A stretch of DNA of 64,000 bases, taken from Lentisphaeraceae bacterium. Lineage in GTDB: Bacteria > Verrucomicrobiota > Kiritimatiellia > RFP12 > DVOR01. This document shows, one piece after another, positions 6,030-53,994 of this stretch (position 1 is the stretch's first letter; each line of letters opens with the position of its first letter). The translations under genes were made by a program, and so were the position numbers. The stretch is taken from the NCBI GenBank assembly GCA_004555175.1, contig SFJE01000002.1, positions 32,333 to 96,332 of the forward strand, read 5' to 3'. A model generated the notes under the pieces. That model was not told the origin of the DNA. It worked only from the letters and a program-made list of their open reading frames with translations, and did no database searches.

Positions 6030-7472
6030 ATGGCTATCCCGATGATTAGCGAAGCCGACCGCCTGCGGCGCGAGGTGCTGGCCTATGTGATTAAGGCTGT
6101 CAAGGCCGGAACCTATGGCGACATTGACCGGATCCCGATTAAGATGCGCCCGAAGGGGCAGCCCTTCTCGCGTTGCTGCATCTATAAGGACCGCGCAGCC
6201 CTGCGTTATCGTTGCATGTCCGCCCTCGGCTTCCGCGTGGAAGATGAAACCGATGAGCTTAAGACGCTCCAATCCTACGCCGAGGACCTAAAGGATAATC
6301 CGCCGGCCGCCGACCCCTTCCTGACCATCTTCCCGGACGCCTGCTCGGCGTGTATGGAATCGCAGATTATGGTCACGAATATGTGCCGCGGCTGCTTGGC
6401 CCGCCCCTGCACCAATATCTGCCCGCGCAAGGCCATTCAAGTGCGCAACGGCCGCGCGCGCATCTCCCACGAGCTGTGCATCAACTGCGGCAAGTGCGCC
6501 GAGGTCTGCCGCTACCACGCCATCATCCAGGTCCCGCTCGCCTGCGCCGATGCCTGCCCCGTGGGCGCCATTGGTAAGACCGATGACGGCCGCGTAACCG
6601 TCGACCACGAAAAGTGCATCCGCTGCGGCAAGTGCATCAAGGCCTGCCCCTTCGCGGCCATTATGCAGAGTAACCAGGTGGCCCATGTGGTCCGCGCCAT
6701 CGCCGAGGGCAAGAAGGTCATCGCCCTGGTCGCCCCCGCCATCAATGGCTTCTTCCCAACCGAGCCCGGCAAGCTCTACACCGCCCTGCGCCAAGTCGGT
6801 TTCTCGGCGGTCTACGAAGTGGCCCGCGGCGGCGATGACACCGCCATTGCCGAGGCGGCCGAGTGGGCCGAACGCAAGGCCGAGGGCGCGCCCTTTATGA
6901 CCACCAGCTGCTGCCCGGCGTGGATTGAGTGCGTGGAGCGTCATATCCCCGAGCTCAAGCCCTACGTCTCCTCCACCCCCACGCCGATGGCCTACACCGA
7001 TAAGCGCGCGAAGGCTGACCATCCGGACGCGGTGACCGTCTTCATCGGCCCGTGCATGGCCAAGCGTACCGAAGCCCACAAGCACGGCTCGCCCGACTAT
7101 GTCATCACCGCCGAGGAGATTGGCGCCTGGTTGATGGCCGAGAACATTCAGCTTGACGACCTGGAAGCCAGCGAGCCCGAGCTCTCCGGCACCCAGTATG
7201 GCGCCGAGTTCGCCATCAGCGGCGGCGTGGCCAACGCTGTGGCCCACTATCTGCCCGAAGGCGTCCCCACCCCGACGGTCTTCAAGATCAACGGCCTCAA
7301 CAAGAAGAACATCGCCCTCCTGCGCGTCTTCGCCAAGACCAAGAAGGCCCCGGCGGAGATTATCGAAGTGATGGTCTGCCCAGGTGGCTGCGTGGCCGGC
7401 CCCTGCGCCATCAACACCCCCGAAGACGCAGCCAAGCTCATCCAGTCTCGCCGCCCTGAAGGCTTCAAGTAA
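6030..7472 (+). CDS. hydA: [FeFe]-hydrogenase catalytic subunit (two F-cluster ferredoxin domains plus H-cluster domain)
   Basis: H-cluster motifs TSCCPAW, GPCMAKRTE (PCxxKxxE) and EVMVCPGGCVAGPC (ExMxCxxGCxxG). Two CxxCxxCxxxCP ferredoxin motifs. An uncharacterized N-terminal extension of about 100 aa. At 480 aa it resembles a large subunit that lacks the C-terminal tail. Confidence 0.8.
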   Translation: MAIPMISEADRLRREVLAYVIKAVKAGTYGDIDRIPIKMRPKGQPFSRCCIYKDRAALRYRCMSALGFRVEDETDELKTLQSYAEDLKDNPPAADPFLTIFPDACSACMESQIMVTNMCRGCLARPCTNICPRKAIQVRNGRARISHELCINCGKCAEVCRYHAIIQVPLACADACPVGAIGKTDDGRVTVDHEKCIRCGKCIKACPFAAIMQSNQVAHVVRAIAEGKKVIALVAPAINGFFPTEPGKLYTALRQVGFSAVYEVARGGDDTAIAEAAEWAERKAEGAPFMTTSCCPAWIECVERHIPELKPYVSSTPTPMAYTDKRAKADHPDAVTVFIGPCMAKRTEAHKHGSPDYVITAEEIGAWLMAENIQLDDLEASEPELSGTQYGAEFAISGGVANAVAHYLPEGVPTPTVFKINGLNKKNIALLRVFAKTKKAPAEIIEVMVCPGGCVAGPCAINTPEDAAKLIQSRRPEGFK

Positions 7473-29495: not shown

Positions 29496-30557
29496 TTAGT
29501 GCTTCGGGATACGGAGCGTAGTGCCAGGAGCCACCGCATTATTCGTGGTATCCTCAAGGTTATTTGCCGCACGCAGGTCGGTCAAGAGCACATTGAACCT
29601 CAACGAGATGCTCACCAGGTCCTCCTTCTCGCCCACCACGTAGGTGGTGAACTCATCGGCCGGCGCCGCCGGCTGCTGCTGGGGCACCGGAGGCTGGGGC
29701 GCAGCCTCCTCCACGGGCGCCACCGGGGGCGGCGGCAACGCTTCCTCGCCCTGCTGGGCGTCCACCGGCGTAACAATCACCGTCTGCTCTTCAGCGGCCG
29801 GGACCGGCTGCTCGACCACAGGCTTCTGCTCAACAGGCTTCTGCTCCACCGGCTTCGCAGCAGGCTTCTGGGTAGCAGGCTTCGCGGCGGACTTCTGAGC
29901 GGGCTTCTTCGTCGCACCCGGGATAGCGAGCTTCTGGCCCACCCAAATCGTGTCGCCCTTCAAGTTGTTGGCCTTCTTGATGGCCTCCACCTTCACCCCA
30001 TGCTTACGCGCAATCGTGCCAAGCACATCACCGGACTTGACCGTATAGGTCGTCGACCCGGCCGGCGCCGCCGGCTTCGCCGCACGCGGCTTGGCCTTGA
30101 CCGTCACATCCGTTCCTGCCGGCAAGAGCACCTTCTGCCCGATGCGCAGGTTGTTCGGATTCCCGCGCAACGAGGGGTTGAGGGCCAGAATATCAGGCTG
30201 ACGGACTTTGAAGCGAGTGGCGAGCGCGCTCACCGAATCCCCCGCCGTCACCGTGTAACTCACCGGCTGAGGATGAACCGCCTCGGGCTTCTTCGCCTCA
30301 GGCTTGGCTTCGGGCTGCGTAGCGGGCGCGGGCTTGACCTCGGGCTCAGCCGTCTCAGGTGCCACTTCGGCCTCATTCGGAGTAACCGTCGGCTCGGCGC
30401 TCACCTCGGCTTCGACCTGCTCAGCCTCTTGGCGATTGACCTCAATGGCTTCCTGCTGCGCCTGGCTAGCCGCAGCCTCCTGCTTCGTGGCGCAACCAGT
30501 CAGCACCACAGCGGAACACGCCGTTAGACAAAGGGAAAACAACACTTGCTTCTTCAT
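29496..30557 (-). CDS. lipoprotein with LysM peptidoglycan-binding domains and Pro/Lys/Glu-rich linkers
   Basis: Lipobox LTGC, and three LysM-like repeats (YTVTAGDSVSALA, YTVKSGDVLGTIA, YVVGEKEDLVSIS). Confidence 0.8.
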   Translation of the reverse strand: MKKQVLFSLCLTACSAVVLTGCATKQEAAASQAQQEAIEVNRQEAEQVEAEVSAEPTVTPNEAEVAPETAEPEVKPAPATQPEAKPEAKKPEAVHPQPVSYTVTAGDSVSALATRFKVRQPDILALNPSLRGNPNNLRIGQKVLLPAGTDVTVKAKPRAAKPAAPAGSTTYTVKSGDVLGTIARKHGVKVEAIKKANNLKGDTIWVGQKLAIPGATKKPAQKSAAKPATQKPAAKPVEQKPVEQKPVVEQPVPAAEEQTVIVTPVDAQQGEEALPPPPVAPVEEAAPQPPVPQQQPAAPADEFTTYVVGEKEDLVSISLRFNVLLTDLRAANNLEDTTNNAVAPGTTLRIPKH

Positions 30558-30700
30558 TGATAAACTCCTGATCTCGAGGCTTAATCACCCTCAAAACGGC
30601 TCGAACTATACCAAACCATCACCTAAAAGGCAAGCATTTGTACCACCTGCACCCTCATTCTGCGCTCCCCGGGAACTCCGGAAATTCCGGAATAAGGGTG

Positions 30701-30895
30701 TGCAGAAGGAAAGGAACGGCGGCGCGGATTATCACGCGGCGCGAAGAGAACTAACCGCTCGGCGGAGCGCAACTAATAAGGCCCCGTCTTATTGGTAACA
30801 AGGCCCCGTCTTATTGGCAACAAGACCCCGTCTTATTGGCAACAAGGCGGGGCCTTATTTATTCAAGTCGCTCGGGAAGCGAGTTAACCCAGCGC
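30701..30895 (+). repeat. interspersed ~195-bp repeat element copy B
   Basis: About 97% identical to 3978..4172 in the same orientation. Confidence 0.9.
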
Positions 30896-31219
30896 GGAGG
30901 TGTGATGTAATGGCGGTGCTTGAACGGTTGAAACTGTCTAACGTGAAAGGAGTATGACAATGAGCAAACAGACTGATACGGACGCTGTATAAATATCAAT
31001 AGAATTGCGCACGAGGGCGGCATCGCCCCTTGCGCTTCGCCCCCGCTACGCACATCACGCTGCACGCATTTACACGCCAACCCAACGCCTCACAACAGAA
31101 AACTTTCCACCGCTATCACATTCCCGATAACCGCATCTGCTAACCCACTCCCCTCCGTCGCCTCTCCTTTCCTACCCCCCTCGCGACAAGGGGCAGCCCC
31201 TGCATAGCCTATAAAAGAG

Positions 31220-31250
31220 GCGCTCGCCAAGCATCTCTCTTGGCGAGCGC
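31220..31250 (-). terminator. 12-bp perfect hairpin (gcgctcgccaag/cttggcgagcgc) plus T-rich tail next to the duplicated ssrA 3' end
   Basis: On the minus strand this is followed by CTCTTTTAT. It looks like an orphaned original ssrA terminator. Confidence 0.4.
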
Positions 31251-31261
31251 GCGCTCAAAAA

Positions 31262-31485
31262 TTGGTGGAGGTGGCGGAAATGAGGACCTGCAAACACAAG
31301 TCTATCTTGAGATCCTATCTTGAAACTCTATCTTAATTCAACCCAAAAAACGTATAGTCCAGATAGGAAATGCAACAGAAAGTATGAAAATGCAAAAAAC
31401 AAAAATGGTGAAAAAATGGTTAAAACCAAAAAGCCCTACATACACAAAAAACTCCTTAAAGCATTGTGCTTTAAGGAGTTAAACT
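31262..31485 (-). mobile_element. putative remnant of an ssrA-targeted integrative element (att-like duplicate of the tmRNA 3' end plus ~200-bp AT-rich insert)
   Basis: The 16-nt sequence TTGGTGGAGGTGGCGG at 31262-31277 duplicates the ssrA 3' end at 31485-31500. The intervening 31279-31455 is strongly AT-rich, unlike the rest of the window. Confidence 0.35.
31456..31482 (-). terminator. intrinsic terminator of ssrA
   Basis: Hairpin ctccttaaagc acaat gctttaaggag followed by TTTTTT on the minus strand. Confidence 0.7.
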
Positions 31486-31841
31486 TGGTGGAGGTGGCGG
31501 GAATTGAACCCGCGTCCAAAGCAGCTTCACAGCGATGTCTACGTGCGTAGCCGGATCTTTGTGTCGCGCAAGGCAAGCCAACCGGCGGGCCAGACCTTGA
31601 GCCACCCTTCATGATGGTACGGTTACGTGTTCCCGAGGGGCCGGTTCACGCAGAGACCTGCGGGTTGACGCGTCCGCCCTTAGCAGGTGTCAGGGGTTCA
31701 GCGACGGGCCAAAAAGGTTAGGCCGCGTAGGCGAAGTTATCGTTCGCAGTTAGGTTTTTGATCGATGTTTTACGGGGCCAACGATCATCCCCGGCACGCA
31801 ACCGAAGTTCCGACATGCCCTGTCGAGACCTGGTCACCCCC
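31486..31841 (-). ncRNA. ssrA: tmRNA (ssrA); encoded tag peptide ANDNFAYAA
   Basis: 5' end GGGGGUGACCAGG and 3' end GGACGCGGGUUCAAUUCCCGCCACCUCCACCA (T-arm plus CCA). Resume codon and tag ORF GCGAACGATAACTTCGCCTACGCGGCCTAA. Confidence 0.9.
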
Positions 31842-31915: not shown

Positions 31916-32680
31916 ATGATTAGGCAGAAAGTATCGACCGAGGAGATTATGCGCGAGGGGCTGGTGCTCTTCGGCGAGGCGGCGCATCACCTCTTGCACG
32001 TGCTTCGGGTTAAGCCCGGGGCGGAGATTGGATGTTTCGATGGGGCTGGGCATACGCGGCTTTATCATGTGACCGAACGCGGGGAGGCCGAACTGACCTT
32101 GCAGGCCAAACAACCCGTCTTCGACTGCGCGCAGCCTCCGGTGGAGTTAGTGCTCTTTGCCTGCATTCCCAAGGGCGAGCGGATGGATTGGTTACTTGAG
32201 AAGGCCACCGAGCTGGGCGTGGGGCGAATTGTGCCGGTGATGAGCGCACGGACGGTGGTGCGGCTGGCTGGGGCGCAGGCGGAGGCTAAGCGCGCGCGGT
32301 GGCAGCGAATTGTCGAGGCGGCCTCGCGCCAATGTGGGGCCACGCGTGTGCCAGAGGTGACCTTGCCCGTGCCCTTTAAGGAGACCGAGCCGATGATGCG
32401 CGCGTGCTCGACCCTCATCGTCGCAGCCCTCATTCCCCAAGCCAAGCCCCTTAAGCCGGTGCTTGATACGCTCGACCCGGCGCGCCCGGGCCAGGTGTGG
32501 GGGTGGTGGTGCGGCCCGGAGGGGGACTTCACCCCCGGCGAGATGGAGGCGATCCTCGCGTGCGGCGCCACGCCGGTCACCCTAGGCCCGCTCATTTTAC
32601 GTGTCGAGACAGCCGCCATTTACGGTCTAGCCAACCTCGGCTGCGTTCGCAACAACCTGCCGCAGACACAGGAGGCATAA
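31916..32680 (+). CDS. rsmE: 16S rRNA (uracil1498-N3)-methyltransferase
   Basis: RsmE family PUA-like N-domain and SPOUT C-domain blocks. Confidence 0.8.
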   Translation: MIRQKVSTEEIMREGLVLFGEAAHHLLHVLRVKPGAEIGCFDGAGHTRLYHVTERGEAELTLQAKQPVFDCAQPPVELVLFACIPKGERMDWLLEKATELGVGRIVPVMSARTVVRLAGAQAEAKRARWQRIVEAASRQCGATRVPEVTLPVPFKETEPMMRACSTLIVAALIPQAKPLKPVLDTLDPARPGQVWGWWCGPEGDFTPGEMEAILACGATPVTLGPLILRVETAAIYGLANLGCVRNNLPQTQEA

Positions 32681-34312: not shown

Positions 34313-37300
34313 ATGAATTGGATGTGCGCGCACGGAATAGCTGCGGTTTGCTTATGGATCGGGACGCTGCTCCCGGGAGTGGCGGCAGCGACAAGCTTGG
34401 AGGGCGCAACGCTTTGGCGCGCAGTGCGCGAGCGCTTCCCGGAGCTAGCGTTGACCGAGGATGTTTCGCCGACGGTGCGCGTGGCCACGGATCGGGCCTC
34501 GCTTCAGGATGCCTTGACGGCGGCTGTAACCGAGGCGGGGGAGGACCTCATTCTCTTGGATGGTCGAACCTCAGCCGAATGGACGGGTTCAACCTCAGTG
34601 ACAGTAACGATGGCCAATGGCGGCATTACCGTGGTCTCCCAAAATCCCGAGACGGGCGACTTTGAAACGCCGGTCACCTTCAAGGGCTTTGGCTTTGCCG
34701 CCACCCTATCTGCCTCTGCGCCCCTGCGCCTAGCCAACTTCGCCATTGTCGAAGCCACGACACAGCAAGCGAGTCCCATTTTTTGCTGTGCGTTGAACTT
34801 TGTGGGTTCAGGTATGGTGGTTGGAAGCGCCCTTTCAATTGTTAACTGTGGCGCAACATCAAGTACGGTTTATGCAGGTGGCGTTTATGCAATGGGTTCA
34901 ACGGTTTCGCTTTACAACACAACCATCGCCAATACGTTCACAGCGTTGTATGGAGCGGTTACCACGACGAGTGCCACGGTGACCCTAACGCATTGCACCC
35001 TCTCCGGGAACAAGAGTGCCAATGGGACAACCGTGACGACTGTTACGCGCAACGGTTCTGATGCCACCGCCCTCAATTGTTGGATGCCCGATTCGGCGGC
35101 GGTGGTGACGATGGGCGCGGGGTTGCCCCATTGCGTGCCGAAGGCCTCCGACGCGGCTATTGATGGGGCGACGGCGGAGAGCATTCTCGCGTTCGATGCG
35201 CTCGGGCGAACGCGGAAGAGTGGCGCGGCGGCGGATTTGGGCGCAGTCGAGGTCCAGGAGAGCGTAACCGTGGAGCCGCCGGCGGACCTGGTGGCGATGC
35301 CGTCGGGTCCACGCCAGGTCTACCTGGGCTGGAGCGCCATTCCGCGGGCGCAGGGCTACACCCTTGCGCGCGCGAACTCCGAGGCGGGTCCGTGGGAGGA
35401 TATTTCGGCGCAGACGCTCTGGCGCTCGCCGGGAACGGGGCGCGCGGACACGATTGCTGGTTGGGCGAGTGCGCGCTTTGTCGCGGCCAAACCGGGGAGT
35501 GCGGCCTACTATCGTCTCTCGATTCTTGTGGAGGGACAGGAGACGATCCAGTGCGAGCCCATGTACGTTGAGACCCCGGCAGCGGAGGCCGTGTCTGCCT
35601 ACCATTCGCGTCCCGGGGCAACGCGGTGCATCTATCTGGACTTTACGGGCTATGTGGAGGACTCGGCTGCACTGGTCGCCGCCGCCCGCGAGGAGCTCTC
35701 GGAGCCAGAGATGACCTATATCGCCACAGCCCCCTTTGAATATGTTGGGCGCTTTGGCGATCGCTCGCAGGTCTACCCCACGGCCTCCGCCATTTACGAC
35801 ATTTGGCGAATGGTAGCCGAAGACTTCGCTGCTTTCGACGTGGATGTCACCACCGAGCCACCCGCGTATGAGGCGTTGGTGAAGGAATCGGATGAGGATG
35901 AGGTCTACGGCAAGCGAGTGGTCATTGGCTACGCGCAGGGGACCTCGAGCCCGTGGTATTCGGGCGGTGGGGCCTTTGCCGGCGGCGGGTACTTCGGCGA
36001 GCGCGTCGATCGGCCGGTCTTCATCTTCAGCGTCCAGTCGCGCCAGAACATTGCCGCGCAGGTCACGCATGAAGTCTCGCACACCCTCGGGCTCTCGCAC
36101 GATAGCGGCAATGTCTGGTTTGGCGACTTTCGTGGTTCGCAGACCTACTACCAAGGCGTGGAGCTCACCCGCAGTGGCGAATTGAACACGAGTGCCACCT
36201 GGGAGAGCAACATCACATGGTACCCGGTGATGGGCGCAGCCCCGACGGTCCAGAAGGCAACCACCTCCGCCGGCGAGTATTACTACTATGACAGTGGCGA
36301 CTTCATCAACCAGTGGAGCCGCGGCAGCTACGCCTCGGCCACGAACCAGGAGGACGACTTTGCCATCCTGCTCGGCCTAGCTGTGGGCTCCGGCACGCAG
36401 TTTGTTGGGGAGCCGGACTTTGAGGCTGCCGCGCGGAACCTGGTGCTGGCCGCGGATGAAGCCGGGGATACCCCCGCTCAGGCCGCTGACCTTGGCGCAC
36501 TGGATGTGGGCGGAGATCAAGCCGCGCAGGGGGTGATTGGCAAGCACGTCACCGAGGCAGGCGCGGTGACCGAGGATGTGGATTGCTACGCCTTGGAGGT
36601 CGCGCAGGGCGGCTGGCTGGAGGCGGCGGTGGTGCCCGGTTTTGAGGGACTAACTGAAGGTGCCTCGCTTGATGCCTGCCTCGAACTTCTCTCCCCCGAG
36701 GGCGATCTCCTCGCCCGCGCCGAGTTGCCCCTGGGCATTGTGGAGGAGGTCACCTTCTCGCGCGTTCGCGAGGCGGGGCTTCGGATGCTTGTGCCAGCGG
36801 CCGGGCGCTACATCCTGCGCGTCTCGGGCACCGTCCACCCCGTCTTTAGCACCACCCTTTCGCCCGACGGCTCGGCCTCGGCCGAGACCCCGTGGTTCTT
36901 CAATGACCGCGAGGCTTATGGCTCCATCGGCCCCTACTCGCTCTCGGCAACCCTCTCCGCAGCCTCGGCCGCAGACCTGCCCGCCTTCCCCAAGCCCCTC
37001 GCAGGCGACGACTCCGCCTACACCCCCGCCGCCCAGCGCGCCCTCTACCAAGCGGCCAACGGGAGTGTCCCCGTCTCAATCCGCGCCACCGATGGCCGCA
37101 CGGAGGTCCTCTCCGCCCAGGCCATCAGTGAAGCCCTCGCTTGCCTCTCCGGCGCGCTTGTCCCCGAGGGCGAAGGCCTAGCGCTCGACTATCGTTTTGA
37201 GGTGACCCATCTCACCCTCGCCGAGGATTCGCTGACCGTTACCGTCGCCCTCTCCTCGCCCTTGGAGGGGTGCGACATCGCCTTCGCCGAGGGCATCACC

Positions 37301-37441
37301 TTCATTCTAACCGACTGGCGCACGGGCTCGGAGATTCGCATCGAGGCCTCCGCCGTCACGGAAGTGGACGCACGCACCCGCCGCTTTGCCCTCACACCCC
37401 CCGCCGGACTCACCTGCTTCCGCGTTCGCGTAAAGCATTAG
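34313..37441 (+). CDS. secreted multidomain metzincin-type zinc metalloprotease (beta-helix repeats, FN3, HExxHxxGxxHD catalytic domain, PPC-like C-terminal domains)
   Basis: Signal peptide; HEVSHTLGLSHD motif. TATAAT at 34245 with AAGGA SD. Confidence 0.65.
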   Translation: MNWMCAHGIAAVCLWIGTLLPGVAAATSLEGATLWRAVRERFPELALTEDVSPTVRVATDRASLQDALTAAVTEAGEDLILLDGRTSAEWTGSTSVTVTMANGGITVVSQNPETGDFETPVTFKGFGFAATLSASAPLRLANFAIVEATTQQASPIFCCALNFVGSGMVVGSALSIVNCGATSSTVYAGGVYAMGSTVSLYNTTIANTFTALYGAVTTTSATVTLTHCTLSGNKSANGTTVTTVTRNGSDATALNCWMPDSAAVVTMGAGLPHCVPKASDAAIDGATAESILAFDALGRTRKSGAAADLGAVEVQESVTVEPPADLVAMPSGPRQVYLGWSAIPRAQGYTLARANSEAGPWEDISAQTLWRSPGTGRADTIAGWASARFVAAKPGSAAYYRLSILVEGQETIQCEPMYVETPAAEAVSAYHSRPGATRCIYLDFTGYVEDSAALVAAAREELSEPEMTYIATAPFEYVGRFGDRSQVYPTASAIYDIWRMVAEDFAAFDVDVTTEPPAYEALVKESDEDEVYGKRVVIGYAQGTSSPWYSGGGAFAGGGYFGERVDRPVFIFSVQSRQNIAAQVTHEVSHTLGLSHDSGNVWFGDFRGSQTYYQGVELTRSGELNTSATWESNITWYPVMGAAPTVQKATTSAGEYYYYDSGDFINQWSRGSYASATNQEDDFAILLGLAVGSGTQFVGEPDFEAAARNLVLAADEAGDTPAQAADLGALDVGGDQAAQGVIGKHVTEAGAVTEDVDCYALEVAQGGWLEAAVVPGFEGLTEGASLDACLELLSPEGDLLARAELPLGIVEEVTFSRVREAGLRMLVPAAGRYILRVSGTVHPVFSTTLSPDGSASAETPWFFNDREAYGSIGPYSLSATLSAASAADLPAFPKPLAGDDSAYTPAAQRALYQAANGSVPVSIRATDGRTEVLSAQAISEALACLSGALVPEGEGLALDYRFEVTHLTLAEDSLTVTVALSSPLEGCDIAFAEGITFILTDWRTGSEIRIEASAVTEVDARTRRFALTPPAGLTCFRVRVKH

Positions 37442-38041: not shown

Positions 38042-39322
38042 TCACGGGCGGGGGCGTTTAACGGCGGCAAAGAAGGGTTTTGAGCGGGCGCTCGCGGCGG
38101 CGGGCTTGGCTGGGCGCGGCGGACGGGGCTGGGGGGCACGCTTGGGGCGGACGGCCTCGGCGCCCATCGCGTTGCGAGCATGTTCGGAGTGGAAGGGCTG
38201 CTCGACATCTTGGGGGATGGGGCGGCCGATGAAGTGCTCGATGTCGCGCAGGGCTTGGCGGTCGTGCGGGCAGACGAGGCTGATGGCTTCGCCTTCGGCG
38301 CCGGCGCGAGCGGTGCGGCCAATGCGGTGAACGTAGGTTTCGGGCTCGTCGGGCAGGTCGTAGTTGATGACGTGGGTGACCTCGTCGACATCAATTCCGC
38401 GGGCGGCAATGTCGGTGGCCACGAGGACTTGGACCTTGCCCGAGCGGAAGCCTTCGAGGGCGCGCAGGCGGGCGGCCTGGCTCTTGTCGCCATGGAGGGC
38501 GGCGGCGGGGAAGCCATCGCGCGTGAGCTGCTTGCAGAGGCGGTCGGCCCCATGCTTCATGCGCGGAAAGACAATGACGCGGAAGCACTTGGGCGTATCG
38601 AGGACCCACTTGAGGAGGGAATACTTCTTCTCCTTATCCACAAAGAGGACGCGCTGGCGGATTGTGTCAACGGTCGGCGCCTCGGGGTTGATGCGAATGG
38701 AGACGGCGTGGCCCTGGATGAACTGCTTGGCCAAGGCCGTGACCTCCGGCGAGAGGGTGGCCGAGAAGAAGAGCGATTGGCGCTTGTGCGGCAATTTGGC
38801 CAGGACCTTGCGGATGTCGGGCAGAAAGCCCATATCAAGCATCCGGTCGGCCTCATCGAGCACCACCGCTTGGACGCTCTCGAGCGAGAGTGCGCCCTGC
38901 CCCTCCAGGTCCAAGAGCCGCCCGGGGGTGGCCACGAGCACGGCCACCCCCTTGGCCAAGGCCGCCACCTGCGGCTTGATGTTCACGCCGCCAAAGACCA
39001 CCGCACAGGGCAGGTCCAGCCCTTTGGCGTAGGCAGAGCAATTCGCCTCAATCTGCGCGGCCAGTTCGCGCGTGGGAGCCAAGATGAGCACCAACGGTCG
39101 TTTGGGGCGGAGCGTGGCGTGCGCCTGGGCGAGCCGGTGCAGGAGCGGTAAGGCGAAGGCGGCCGTCTTGCCAGTGCCGGTCTGGGCGCAGCCCATGAGG
39201 TGCTTGCCGGCGAGGATGGGCTTGATGGCCGCTTCCTGGATGGGCGTGGGGCGTTGATACCCCATCGCCGCGATGGCCTGTTGCAAGGCCGGGTGGAGAT
39301 GCGCGAAGACCGTCCCCTTCAT
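38042..39322 (-). CDS. DEAD-box ATP-dependent RNA helicase (RhlE-like) with basic C-terminal tail
   Basis: Q motif, AQTGTGKT, DEAD, SAT, HRIGRTAR. Confidence 0.9.
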   Translation of the reverse strand: MKGTVFAHLHPALQQAIAAMGYQRPTPIQEAAIKPILAGKHLMGCAQTGTGKTAAFALPLLHRLAQAHATLRPKRPLVLILAPTRELAAQIEANCSAYAKGLDLPCAVVFGGVNIKPQVAALAKGVAVLVATPGRLLDLEGQGALSLESVQAVVLDEADRMLDMGFLPDIRKVLAKLPHKRQSLFFSATLSPEVTALAKQFIQGHAVSIRINPEAPTVDTIRQRVLFVDKEKKYSLLKWVLDTPKCFRVIVFPRMKHGADRLCKQLTRDGFPAAALHGDKSQAARLRALEGFRSGKVQVLVATDIAARGIDVDEVTHVINYDLPDEPETYVHRIGRTARAGAEGEAISLVCPHDRQALRDIEHFIGRPIPQDVEQPFHSEHARNAMGAEAVRPKRAPQPRPPRPAKPAAASARSKPFFAAVKRPRP

Positions 39323-41055
39323 TGGCGCGCCTCCCGCCGCTTGCCGGGATGGCCCTTGCCGCGGCCCTTAAAGTTGCCCTTGAAGGGGCCCTTACGGCCC
39401 TTGGGGCCTTTGGGGCGGGGCGACTCGGGGGTAGCCTCCACGAACTTGGGGTTGAGCGGCCGGCCATCAAAGTCGGCCTCGCACAAGGCTTCTAGGACGC
39501 GCTCGCCGAGTTCGGCGCGCACATCGAAGAAGGCGAACTCACGCTTGATGGCAATGGCTCCGATGTCCGAGGCTTGAATACCGGCCAGTTCGCAGGCCAA
39601 GCGGACAACGGCGCCCTCGCGCAGGTGGTCTAGTCGCCCCACGTGGAGCATCAGGCGCTTGCGCTCACCGAAGGCCGCGTCGCGTTCGGCGCGGGAGGGA
39701 GCGGCCACGGGGTTGAGGTCTCGCGCGTCTTCATAGGCCTCCATCAACGAACTCAGGCGCAGCTGGAGGATACGCGCCAGGACCTCGGTGGCGGAGAGTT
39801 GGCCCATCAGCGGGGCCACGGCCGGCAAGAGCTCCTGGATGGCCGGGTTAATCTCCTGGACCTGGCGGACCTGTTCGGCCAGCCAGAAGACGTGCTTTTG
39901 GCGGACATCGTCGGCAGTCGGGATGGCGCGCTGCTCGAAGCGCAGACCGCAGATGCGCTCGATGAGGCGGAGCTTCTGGCGGTCGCGCGGGGTGACCAAG
40001 GTGATCGAGATGCCCGCCTTGCCGGCGCGGGCGGTGCGGCCGGAGCGATGGGTGTAGACGGCCGCGTCATCGGGCAGATGGTAGTGAATGACATGGGTGA
40101 TGTCCTCGACATCCAGGCCGCGCGCGGCGACATCGGTGGCCACGAGGATGCGGACAGCCTTGTCGCGGAACTTGCGCATCACCGCGTCGCGTTGGGCCTG
40201 GGAGAGGTCGCCGTGGAGGGCTTCGGCGTAGACGCCATCGTGCATCAACGCCTCGCTCAGCTTCTGGGTGTCGGCCCGCGTGCGGCAGAAGACCAAGCCA
40301 TACATTTCGGGAACGAAGTCGATAATCCGCCGCAGGGCACCGTAGCGATTCTTCTCGGCCACGGCGTAGGCGTGGTGCTCAATATTGGCCTGGGCCACAT
40401 TGCGCGTGCCGACGGTAATCTCTAGGGGCTGGTGGATGTAGCGCCCGGCGATGGCCTCGACTTCTGGCGGCATCGTGGCCGAGAAGAGCCACTTCGCGGC
40501 AGAAGCCGGCACGCGCTCGAGAATGAAGTCAAGCTCCTCGCGAAAACCCAGGTCGAGCATCTCGTCGGCTTCGTCAAGGACGCAGGTACGCACCGTGTCT
40601 AGGGCGATAGCCTCGCGCCGGAGGAGGTCGCAGAGTCGCCCGGGGGTGGCCACCACCACCTGCGCCCCGCGTTCAAGCTTGGCAATCTGCTGGCCGATTG
40701 GCGCGCCGCCGTAGCAAGCCACCACGCGCACCTGCGCCAGGTGCTTGGCAAAGCGGGCCAACTCCTCGCCAATCTGCAAGCAGAGTTCACGCGTTGGGGC
40801 CAGAATCAGCCCCTGCACGGAGGTCGCTTCGCCTTGAACCCGGGCCAAGAGCGGCAGACCGTAGGCGCAGGTCTTGCCAGTGCCCGTGGCAGCCAGGGCC
40901 ACGCAGTCGGGCGCCTCGGCAGCCAACAGGGGCGGAATAGCGGCAGCCTGAATCGGCATCGGGGCCTTAAAGCCCAGCCCCTCAACGGCCCGCAGCAACG
41001 GCTCGGGCAATCCCAAACTCCGGAACTCTCCGGTCTCTTCGCACATCGTCATCAA
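39319..41055 (-). CDS. DEAD-box RNA helicase with DbpA/CsdA-like C-terminal RNA-binding domain
   Basis: ATGTGKT, DEAD, SAT, HRSGRTAR, plus a C-terminal DbpA-like region and an RGG/K-rich tail. Confidence 0.9.
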   Translation of the reverse strand: MMTMCEETGEFRSLGLPEPLLRAVEGLGFKAPMPIQAAAIPPLLAAEAPDCVALAATGTGKTCAYGLPLLARVQGEATSVQGLILAPTRELCLQIGEELARFAKHLAQVRVVACYGGAPIGQQIAKLERGAQVVVATPGRLCDLLRREAIALDTVRTCVLDEADEMLDLGFREELDFILERVPASAAKWLFSATMPPEVEAIAGRYIHQPLEITVGTRNVAQANIEHHAYAVAEKNRYGALRRIIDFVPEMYGLVFCRTRADTQKLSEALMHDGVYAEALHGDLSQAQRDAVMRKFRDKAVRILVATDVAARGLDVEDITHVIHYHLPDDAAVYTHRSGRTARAGKAGISITLVTPRDRQKLRLIERICGLRFEQRAIPTADDVRQKHVFWLAEQVRQVQEINPAIQELLPAVAPLMGQLSATEVLARILQLRLSSLMEAYEDARDLNPVAAPSRAERDAAFGERKRLMLHVGRLDHLREGAVVRLACELAGIQASDIGAIAIKREFAFFDVRAELGERVLEALCEADFDGRPLNPKFVEATPESPRPKGPKGRKGPFKGNFKGRGKGHPGKRREARQ

Positions 41056-52245: not shown

Positions 52246-53994
52246 GTGCTTTCGGTCATCCTGCCGTTTCACAACGAAGGGCCTGAGCGCGCCGAGCGCA
52301 ATCTCGGCGCGCTCTCGGCATACCTCTGCGCGCAAGGCCTCGACTTCCGCCTCATCCCCGTGGATGACGGCTCCACCGACGGCACCGCCCAGGCCCTACA
52401 CGCCTTCGCCGAAAGCCATCCCGCCTGCCGCCCCATCCTCCTCCCCGAAAACCGCGGCAAAGGCGCTGCCCTCCTTGCTGGCCTCCCCGAGGTCGCCGGC
52501 GACTGGGTCCTCCTCCTTGATGGCGACTTCGATCTCGATCCTGCGATGCTCCCGCACTTCTTCGCCGAAGCCGAACGCACCAGCGCGGACATCGTCGTTG
52601 GCAGCAAACGCCACCCCCGCGCCGAGGTCCACTATCCCCTCCGCCGCCGCCTCCTCAGCGCCTGCTACCACGCCCTCACCCGCCACGCCCTCCACCTCCC
52701 GATCAGCGACACCCAAAGCGGGATGAAGCTCATCCGCACCGAGGTCCTTCGCTACGCCGCCGAACGGATGCTCGTTAAAGCCTTCGCCTTCGACCTCGAA
52801 CTCCTCGTCGTGGCCCTCGGCGGCGGCTACCGCGTGGCCGAGGCCCCCGTGCGCATCGCCCACTTCGGTCACCGCTGGGGCTGCATCTCCGCGCGAATGC
52901 TCTGGCGCACCCTCATCGACACCCTGGCCATCCTCTACCGCGAGCGCATCCTCCACTACTACGCCTCCCTCACCCCGCCCCCCGCGCCGGAAGCTGCCCC
53001 CGCACAAGGCCCGCGCTTCAGCCTCATCGTTGCCTGCCCCGGCGATAGCGCCGTCCTCCGCCGCCTCATCGATGCCCTGCGCGCGCAAACCTACCGCAAC
53101 TTTGAAGTCCTCTTCCTCCCCGACCACCTCCTCGTCCGCCCCGAAACCAACTACCGCTTCCGCATCCTCGCCACCGGCAGTGTCCGCCCCGCCCGCAAAC
53201 GTAATATGGGCGCCCTCGCCGCCACTGGCGACATCCTCGTCTTCATCGACGACGATGCCTACCCCCGCGCCGACTGGCTCGCCAATGCCGCCGCCCGCTT
53301 CGCCGACCCCGCCATTCACGCCCTCGGCGGCCCCGGCCTCACCCCGCCCGAAGATCCCCCCCTCGCCCAACTCTCCGGCACCGTCTTCGCCTCCCCCCTC
53401 GTCTCTGGCAACTTCCGCTACCGCTACTTCATCCAAGGCGCTCTCCGCCGCGTGGAAGACTTCCCCAGTTGCAACCTCTTCATCCGCCGCACCGCCTTCG
53501 ATGCCATCGGCGGCTTCCGCGAAAACTTCTGGCCCGGCGAAGACACCCTCCTCTGCGCCGACCTCCAACGCCACGGCTATAGCCTCTGGTACGACCCGCG
53601 CGTCGTCGTCTACCACCACCGCCGCCCCCTCTTCGGCCCCCACCTCCGCCAAGTCGGCCGCTACGCCCTCCACCGCGGCTACTTCGCCCGCCGCATCGGC
53701 CTCAACTCCCGCCGCCTCTCCTACCACCTCCCCGCCCTCTTCGTCCTCGGCCTCCTCTTGGGCCTCCCCGCCGCCTACTTCCTCCCCCTCCTCGCGCTCC
53801 CCTACTGCGCCACCATCGCCCTCTACCTCACCCTCACCGCCGCTGACGCCCTCCTCGAAGCCCCCGCCCTCCGCACCGTCCCCACCGTCTGGGCTGGTAT
53901 CATCCTCACCCACTTGTGGTACGGCCTCCGCTTCCTCCAAGGTCTCTTCGCCCGCCGAATGCCCTGCGGCGTCCGCCCCTTCGACCACCGTTAA
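52246..53994 (+). CDS. tandem two-domain family 2 glycosyltransferase
   Basis: Two GT2 domains (VILPFHNE ... DGDFD and LIVACPGD ... FIDDDAY), C-terminal TM segments. GTG start. Confidence 0.75.
   Translation: MLSVILPFHNEGPERAERNLGALSAYLCAQGLDFRLIPVDDGSTDGTAQALHAFAESHPACRPILLPENRGKGAALLAGLPEVAGDWVLLLDGDFDLDPAMLPHFFAEAERTSADIVVGSKRHPRAEVHYPLRRRLLSACYHALTRHALHLPISDTQSGMKLIRTEVLRYAAERMLVKAFAFDLELLVVALGGGYRVAEAPVRIAHFGHRWGCISARMLWRTLIDTLAILYRERILHYYASLTPPPAPEAAPAQGPRFSLIVACPGDSAVLRRLIDALRAQTYRNFEVLFLPDHLLVRPETNYRFRILATGSVRPARKRNMGALAATGDILVFIDDDAYPRADWLANAAARFADPAIHALGGPGLTPPEDPPLAQLSGTVFASPLVSGNFRYRYFIQGALRRVEDFPSCNLFIRRTAFDAIGGFRENFWPGEDTLLCADLQRHGYSLWYDPRVVVYHHRRPLFGPHLRQVGRYALHRGYFARRIGLNSRRLSYHLPALFVLGLLLGLPAAYFLPLLALPYCATIALYLTLTAADALLEAPALRTVPTVWAGIILTHLWYGLRFLQGLFARRMPCGVRPFDHR

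Follow-up and report, generated by a model that had tools for sequence, protein, structure and literature searches.

How the 3′ end of an intact tmRNA gene came to be present twice, in direct orientation and with AT-rich DNA between the two copies, is the question raised by the ssrA locus of Candidatus Spyradenecus, a member of the gut Kiritimatiellae. The locus lies in the window, a term used here for the whole stretch of 64,000 nucleotides that was analyzed. The best explanation, with a probability of roughly 80%, is that a 223-bp unit at this locus represents the decayed, att-flanked remnant of an integrative element that targeted ssrA. A degraded island or att remnant had already been proposed in the initial annotation, and this reading is supported by the duplication itself, by empty sites in relatives, by a clean 223-bp indel, and by a displaced hairpin. 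The gene and the two copies of its 3′ end, referred to below as the core, are placed as follows in window coordinates.

31486 to 31841, minus strand: ssrA, the tmRNA gene, intact, identified with ARAGORN and with Rfam RF00023
31485 to 31500, minus strand: proximal core copy, an exact 16-mer placed with the Rfam structure line, the attR-like junction in tmRNA orientation
31262 to 31277, minus strand: distal core copy, an exact 16-mer, the attL-like junction in tmRNA orientation

The gene matches RF00023 in Rfam over its full length (model positions 1 to 374) with 160.6 bits, and ARAGORN assigns it the tag peptide ANDNFAYAA. The 16-mer TTGGTGGAGGTGGCGG is found exactly on the plus strand at both core positions, 31262 to 31277 and 31485 to 31500, with an offset of 223 bp between the direct copies. 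A third match in the 64 kb, obtained when up to 2 mismatches are allowed, lies at position 53637 on the minus strand and is unrelated; three matches were found in 0 of 100 shuffled sequences. Mapped on the Rfam structure line, the core reads CCGC-CACCUCC-ACCA-A on the transcript. It is comprised of the last 4 bases of the 3′ strand of the T stem, the 3′ strand of the acceptor, the discriminator with CCA, and 1 base past the mature end. The exact direct repeat had been described previously as the 3′ 16 nucleotides of ssrA; the repeat stands, but the 16-mer consists of 15 nucleotides of the mature tmRNA and 1 base past the CCA. The likeness between the copies continues imperfectly on both sides, giving 24 nucleotides with 2 mismatches (31258 to 31281 versus 31481 to 31504). 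This extension fits an identity block shared by attP and attB, unlike a target duplication produced by a transposase.

The DNA between the two copies shows the following organization.

31278 to 31484, no strand assigned: element-derived insert of 207 bp, with 32.9% GC and without a credible ORF, missing in relatives with an empty site
31301 to 31367, no strand assigned: four copies of YCTATCTKRA, three of them direct with 13-bp spacing (31301, 31314, and 31327) and one inverted (31358 to 31367)
31387 to 31432, plus strand: A-tract run in the center of the insert, including two copies of AAAAATGGTKA at 31401 to 31422

With 32.9% GC, the insert lies far below the window (63.5%) and its immediate flanks (61%). 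The initial annotation had recognized the AT-rich character of the segment and its contrast with the remainder of the window, and both hold; the limits are 31278 to 31484 instead of 31279 to 31455, and the GC content of the window is 63.5% instead of about 65%. The insert contains no credible gene, only short and nonconserved ORFs. A coding role was considered for the best of these, a 32-amino-acid ORF at 31384 to 31482, and was rejected because the internal ATG at 31390 to 31392 is destroyed in one of the insert haplotypes (L032 and L033). This ATG is the only start of the ORF that has a plausibly spaced Shine-Dalgarno-like GAAAG. An Rfam scan of the insert and the flank returned the tmRNA 3′ end only, with all other matches far below the threshold.

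Small size, AT richness, lack of coding capacity, and direct repeats at both sides are also properties of transposon-like DNA. The insert could accordingly be viewed as a MITE or an insertion sequence derivative with a 16-bp target-site duplication, or as a local duplication followed by an unrelated insertion. Such an origin is highly improbable on the structure of the locus. The insert has no terminal inverted repeats, as 5 of 20 terminal bases match and the best local score is trivial. It is single copy and confined to ssrA in the 643 kb formed by the window and 63 related loci. The extension to 24 nucleotides with 2 mismatches is unexpected for a target-site duplication, and the duplicated block stops at the 3′ end of the tDNA, as in islands of the integrase type (PMC4383910). 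The insert resembles MITEs in being short, AT rich, noncoding, bounded by direct repeats, and polymorphic among strains. It differs from them in the absence of terminal inverted repeats, in its restriction to one locus, and in its flanking repeat, a 16-nucleotide tDNA end with an imperfect extension instead of a duplication of fixed length. The insert is not a MITE.

Evidence for an insertion comes from the comparison of occupied and empty ssrA loci, which the initial annotation had suggested as a check. The RsmE gene (31916 to 32680), beginning 75 bp upstream of ssrA, served as the anchor, and same-species contigs, in which RsmE differs by 0 to 4 amino acids, were drawn from a 90%-identity RsmE cluster. 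A sister species, L001, has an RsmE that is 94% identical and shows the same GC-rich hairpin directly 3′ of ssrA, the end of the gene (...CTTGGCGAGCGCGAGCTCAAAC) passing straight into the hairpin (TTGGTGGAGGTGGCGGGAATTG...). The window and L001 are collinear in the alignment apart from one clean gap of 223 bp, corresponding to the insert and one core. Twelve same-species contigs are likewise empty, with an identical hairpin (L031, L035, L039, L040, L052 to L054, L057, L059, L060, L063, and L066), and more distant loci (L002, L003, L030, L041 to L047, L050, and L051) have one core copy with a related GC-rich hairpin in the same place. Five same-species contigs are occupied (L026, L032, L033, L034, and L061, the last in truncated form). 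Each same-species locus examined is empty, carries the insert, or is cut at ssrA. Both states thus exist, the AT-rich DNA together with one core constitutes an insertion, and the insert is a presence/absence polymorphism, not a spacer conserved in relatives. The integrative unit measures 223 bp, namely, the 207-bp insert and one core. Since the chromosomal sequence beyond the distal core is the same as at the empty sites, this core is the displaced original end of ssrA, and the last 15 nucleotides of the window ssrA are now element derived.

The occupied contigs also settle a technical concern. The window stems from a metagenome-assembled genome, and several Logan/ENA contigs (L036 to L038, L058, and L064) are interrupted at the 3′ end of ssrA or close to it, so a chimeric join at a short repeat, created during assembly or binning, has to be considered. 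The same structure was assembled independently in at least five other samples or assemblies (L026, L032, L033, L034, and L061), with small sequence differences, and an artifact is thereby effectively refuted. Contig breaks at the core were also considered as a sign of mixed alleles within a sample; they are suggestive only, because most of them coincide with single-nucleotide polymorphisms in the T loop and not with the att boundary.

A different occupant is indicated by another same-species contig, L065 (Logan SRR23253244). At its positions 1 to 84, a different AT-rich sequence (...GGAATTAAAATCAAAATTTGAAG) directly adjoins the CCA of ssrA, and the contig extends no more than 84 bp past this end. 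The sequence has no match in IMG/VR. It probably belongs to another integrative element in the same ssrA site, and an AT-rich end at the CCA would mean that at least one other element targets this site in the species.

The insertion has also left two terminators at the locus.

31210 to 31250, minus strand: displaced ancestral ssrA terminator, with a 12-bp GC-rich stem and a T-rich tail
31440 to 31480, minus strand: element-supplied intrinsic terminator, with a perfect 14-bp AT-rich stem formed by 31450 to 31463 and 31467 to 31480

In the minus-strand reading direction, a terminator comes after either core copy: an AT-rich one after the proximal copy and a GC-rich one after the distal copy. The GC-rich hairpin at 31220 to 31250 is built from arms at 31220 to 31231 and 31239 to 31250, with 12 perfect pairs and a 7-nucleotide loop. 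Its tail on the minus strand is CTCTTTTATA, also given as CUCUUUUAUA, and its folding energy is −26.1 kcal/mol (z = −4.4). The terminator of the insert at 31450 to 31480 ends in the U-run tail UUUUUUGUGUAU, folds with −18.7 kcal/mol (z = −5.9), and is unchanged in all insert haplotypes. This second structure was missing from the description in the initial annotation, which had noted the perfect 12-bp hairpin with a T-rich tail behind the distal core and had taken it for the ancestral ssrA terminator. The hairpin is confirmed at 31220 to 31250, and so is its identity, as it abuts ssrA in L001 and in the 12 empty same-species contigs. The direct junction of the hairpin with ssrA at empty sites, together with the clean 223-bp indel, identifies it as the displaced ancestral terminator. 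The 14-bp terminator of the insert now serves ssrA. The locus represents a very clean case of terminator swapping: an essential RNA gene ends in element DNA and uses the terminator of the element, while its own old terminator lies idle 223 bp away.

These observations can be arranged into a multistep scheme. The attP of an integrative element would have recombined with the 3′ end of ssrA, most likely by means of a tyrosine integrase. The crossover would lie inside the 16-nucleotide identity block, which reaches from the junction of the T stem and the acceptor stem to the CCA end. In this exchange, the last 15 nucleotides of ssrA would have been replaced by an identical copy from the element along with the new AT-rich terminator, and the original 3′ end with its GC-rich terminator would have been moved to the far end of the element. 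The interior, with the integrase gene, may then have been lost in a later deletion. The remaining 207 bp would consist of two att-proximal arms, one containing the terminator and the other containing three or four repeats resembling arm-type sites.

The scheme follows what is known from genomic islands. The attP of an island carries a fragment of the tDNA, and integration leaves a regenerated tDNA and a displaced fragment (PMC4383910). Hudson et al. describe an attP of about 250 bp and crossover subsites that include the junction of the T stem and the acceptor stem, termed subsite J (PMC4383910). The tmRNA gene is the most enriched integration target (PMC4383910). Similar to islands of the Islander type, the locus shows an intact, regenerated ssrA at one end and a displaced, direct 3′ fragment at the other end, an identity block running from subsite J to the 3′ end, DNA of foreign composition between the copies, and empty sites in relatives. 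The Islander filters require an integrase and a length of 2 to 200 kb (PMC4383910). Unlike the islands, the insert has 207 bp and contains neither an integrase nor cargo, and these filters would reject it. With both the integrase and the kilobase size lacking, the unit is classified as a remnant instead of an island.

A second counterpart is found in the CIMEs, decayed ICEs or IMEs that keep attL and attR and have lost the genes for integration and transfer (PMC5704250). The unit shares with them the att-like flanks, the lack of recombination genes, a position at the 3′ end of an RNA gene, and intact cores to which a new element could be added by accretion. Candidate counterparts of attL and attR are the two exact cores and the adjacent, repeat-bearing arms, which are unchanged across haplotypes; the gene loss typical of CIMEs is matched by an insert without any genes. 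Described CIMEs are kilobase sized and have known parent ICEs, and their mobilization has been shown. In contrast, no parent of the unit was found in the IMG/VR, JGI, phage, and plasmid collections, and no accretion partner is present.

The arms of the insert show further features of a recombination site. YCTATCTKRA occurs five times in the 64-kb window, compared with an expectation of 0.28, and four of the five copies fall inside 67 bp of the insert. All four are unchanged across the insert haplotypes, and the direct triplet lies in the arm adjoining the distal core. By analogy, these copies are candidate arm-type sites of an integrase. In phages of the lambda type, attP is formed by a core with flanking arms that contain repeated arm-type Int sites and bending sites. 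The unit may be compared with such an attP in its size (about 220 to 250 bp), its A-tract-rich center, and its three tandem direct 10-bp repeats 24 to 59 bp from one core plus an inverted copy. It differs in having no known cognate integrase, and a deletion may have brought its arms together, in which case they would not form a native attP. Variation within the insert is highest in the A-tract run, which could serve as a bend or accessory-factor region or could mark the junction of an internal deletion.

The size of the unit, 223 bp, is about that of one attP and also fits an element that was never larger. In that case, the unit would be a complete, nonautonomous miniature element of the integrative type, essentially an attP and its two arms, that has lost no interior at this site. 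It would be inserted and excised by an integrase provided in trans from a full-length element of the same population. This alternative is rather unlikely, although several findings fit it: the correspondence with the attP size of about 250 bp (PMC4383910); two ends that are unchanged, including the four motif copies, with 7 of 7 variable sites in the central part; and the second AT-rich sequence at the CCA end in L065, which points to ssrA-targeting elements circulating in the species. Against it stands the fact that neither an integrase nor a donor nor a circle junction has been seen. The single copy, at ssrA only, in the 643 kb would be predicted by a dead scar as well.

The population pattern bears on both readings. 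Three insert haplotypes are distinguished, represented by the window and L026, by L032 and L033, and by L034. They differ by six substitutions and the length of one A run, all within 31342 to 31451, and the 64 bp adjoining the distal core and 33 bp of the terminator are unchanged. The clustering of the seven variable sites in the center is not significant for the left arm alone (p ≈ 0.08) and reaches p ≈ 0.01 for both ends, a value to be read with the caveat that constraint on the terminator is expected anyway. Pairwise divergence is 1.4 to 2.4% in the insert, 1.3 to 2% in the right flank (1.9 kb), and 3 to 7% in the left noncoding flank. Since the insert has diverged to an extent comparable to that of its flanks, it has evolved in place for about as long as the strains have been diverging. 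This favors one old insertion inherited in place over a miniature element that moves in and out.

No flanking single-nucleotide polymorphism is private to the occupied alleles. At least two haplotypes of the left flank, marked by TT or GC about 98 bp from the core, occur with the insert, and both also occur empty. In a tree of the 1.2-kb flank, which is star-like and poorly resolved, the occupied alleles are not monophyletic. The scar is an old insertion-deletion polymorphism, because the insert occurs on more than one flank haplotype. A mobile miniature element would explain its presence or absence among strains with identical or near-identical RsmE and different flank haplotypes, as well as the nonmonophyletic occupied alleles; homologous recombination or slippage at the 16-nucleotide repeats gives the same pattern, and the flank tree is star-like. 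The distribution is most simply explained by a single old insertion and, subsequently, recurrent precise loss or exchange of alleles. Empty alleles may be ancestral or may have arisen by precise deletion between the 16-nucleotide direct repeats or by allelic replacement. Possible routes of loss are slippage or recombination between these repeats, the action of an integrase in trans, and homologous recombination between strains. If the unit were a live miniature element after all, it would be a parasite of the integrase of full-length ssrA elements in Ca. Spyradenecus, moving in and out of ssrA. It would represent an integrase-dependent analogue of a MITE, equipped with conserved arm sites and its own terminator and missed by finders that need an integrase and at least 2 kb.

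The search for a recombinase and for a parent of the proposed remnant covered the window and several sequence collections. No integrase was found among 29 annotated ORFs of the window, in agreement with the initial annotation; the check covered 27 ORFs spread across the window with Pfam and the precomputed calls to the right of ssrA. Only housekeeping functions were found, including LysM, FtsW/RodA, HAD, MatE, NadA, RsmE, prephenate dehydrogenase, CrcB, DnaB, BamA, and LigA. An attP-type junction of the 223-bp unit would read ...GGAGTTAAAC, followed by TTGGTGGAGGTGGCGG and by AAATGAGGACC..., joining position 31484 through the core to position 31278. When IMG/VR was scanned for exact matches to the attL-side and attR-side junctions, the triple repeat, a two-site repeat pattern, and an attP-type core, nothing relevant was returned. 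Two IMG/VR matches belong to giant-virus metagenome-assembled genomes and resemble chance hits. The scan of JGI metagenomes led to one contig; its match, located within a phage-like coding sequence rich in glycine instead of at a tmRNA end, was dismissed as chance. In phage and plasmid collections, blastn with the unit as the query returned the tmRNA core only, for example, from mycobacteriophages.

In a generic scan of IMG/VR with the core, more than 120 viral contigs contained the 3′-end sequence of the tmRNA. A quick ARAGORN run left 59 of 73 tmRNA-like viral matches without a full tmRNA gene, some of these being cut by contig ends. The frequency of the core in viral contigs fits its use as an att core. 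None of the more than 120 viral core loci resembles the insert or the end of L065. A search for distal junctions anchored on LysM yielded contigs that all stop in a cassette of 22-bp repeats, short of ssrA. A full-length element with these arms was not found in IMG/VR, JGI, or the phage and plasmid collections, which leaves the recombinase type unproven and the internal deletion hypothetical.

The mechanism as such is already known, comprising integration at the 3′ end of ssrA, terminator swapping, decay, and persistence as an indel. The scar is of an ordinary, well-understood kind and leaves current understanding unchanged; it is a clean example in an understudied phylum. In cultured phyla, integrative elements are well documented to come and go at the tmRNA gene, and the scar shows that they do so in gut Kiritimatiellae (Ca. 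Spyradenecus) as well. Pipelines for finding islands discard integrase-less scars below 2 kb, although these mark past integrations. In practical terms, the ssrA scar is an indel suitable for strain typing, and its two intact cores are possible landing pads for new elements.

Several further observations concern the neighborhood of the locus. A C-rich noncoding stretch (31025 to 31215) without an ORF or an Rfam match lies just past the ancestral ssrA terminator. It is conserved in all same-species loci and, at about 82%, in L001, and may represent a promoter, a leader, or a small RNA. Next to it lies a noncoding cassette of about 330 bp (30693 to 31024), located between sequences conserved in L001 and itself nonhomologous to L001. 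Within the cassette, a 22-bp unit, AAGRCCCCGTCTTATTGGYAAC, is found three times in direct orientation; the last unit is inverted and similar to a plus-strand terminator, and the repeats cover 30775 to 30859. The same place in L001 (about 6040 to 6120) and L002 (1 to 60) is taken by different 22-bp units built on the palindrome TTAATTCAATTA, and L063 (7860 to 7945) shares the unit version of the window. The cassette resembles an array of palindromic sites or hairpins that would be allelic and swappable. All seven Logan/ENA contigs with the LysM protein of the window (L187 to L193) end 70 to 270 bp upstream of LysM, in or beside the cassette, which indicates that the cassette breaks short-read assemblies or is heterogeneous within samples.

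Beyond the ssrA terminator, close relatives differ completely. The LysM gene is present in the window (29496 to 30557) and in L001. Its place is taken by a 2,394-amino-acid protein in L063 (1 to 7700), by TPR and XseB in L055 (1 to 3425), whose RsmE is the same as that of other same-species contigs, and by dus in a 92 to 93% group (L003, L030, L041 to L047, L050, and L051). None of these alternative flank genes is found anywhere in the window. The 3′ flank of ssrA is a synteny breakpoint.

Two minor observations were made on the other side of ssrA. ARAGORN reports a 92-nucleotide tRNA-Leu(CAG) at 39776 to 39867, inside a 578-amino-acid DEAD/DbpA-like ORF on the minus strand (39319 to 41055). 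Rfam gives no tRNA there at the gathering score, and the call is probably a false positive. An ORF of 1,042 amino acids at 34313 to 37441 has no Pfam match and is found at the same position in same-species contigs, where it is called with 1,019 to 1,044 amino acids.
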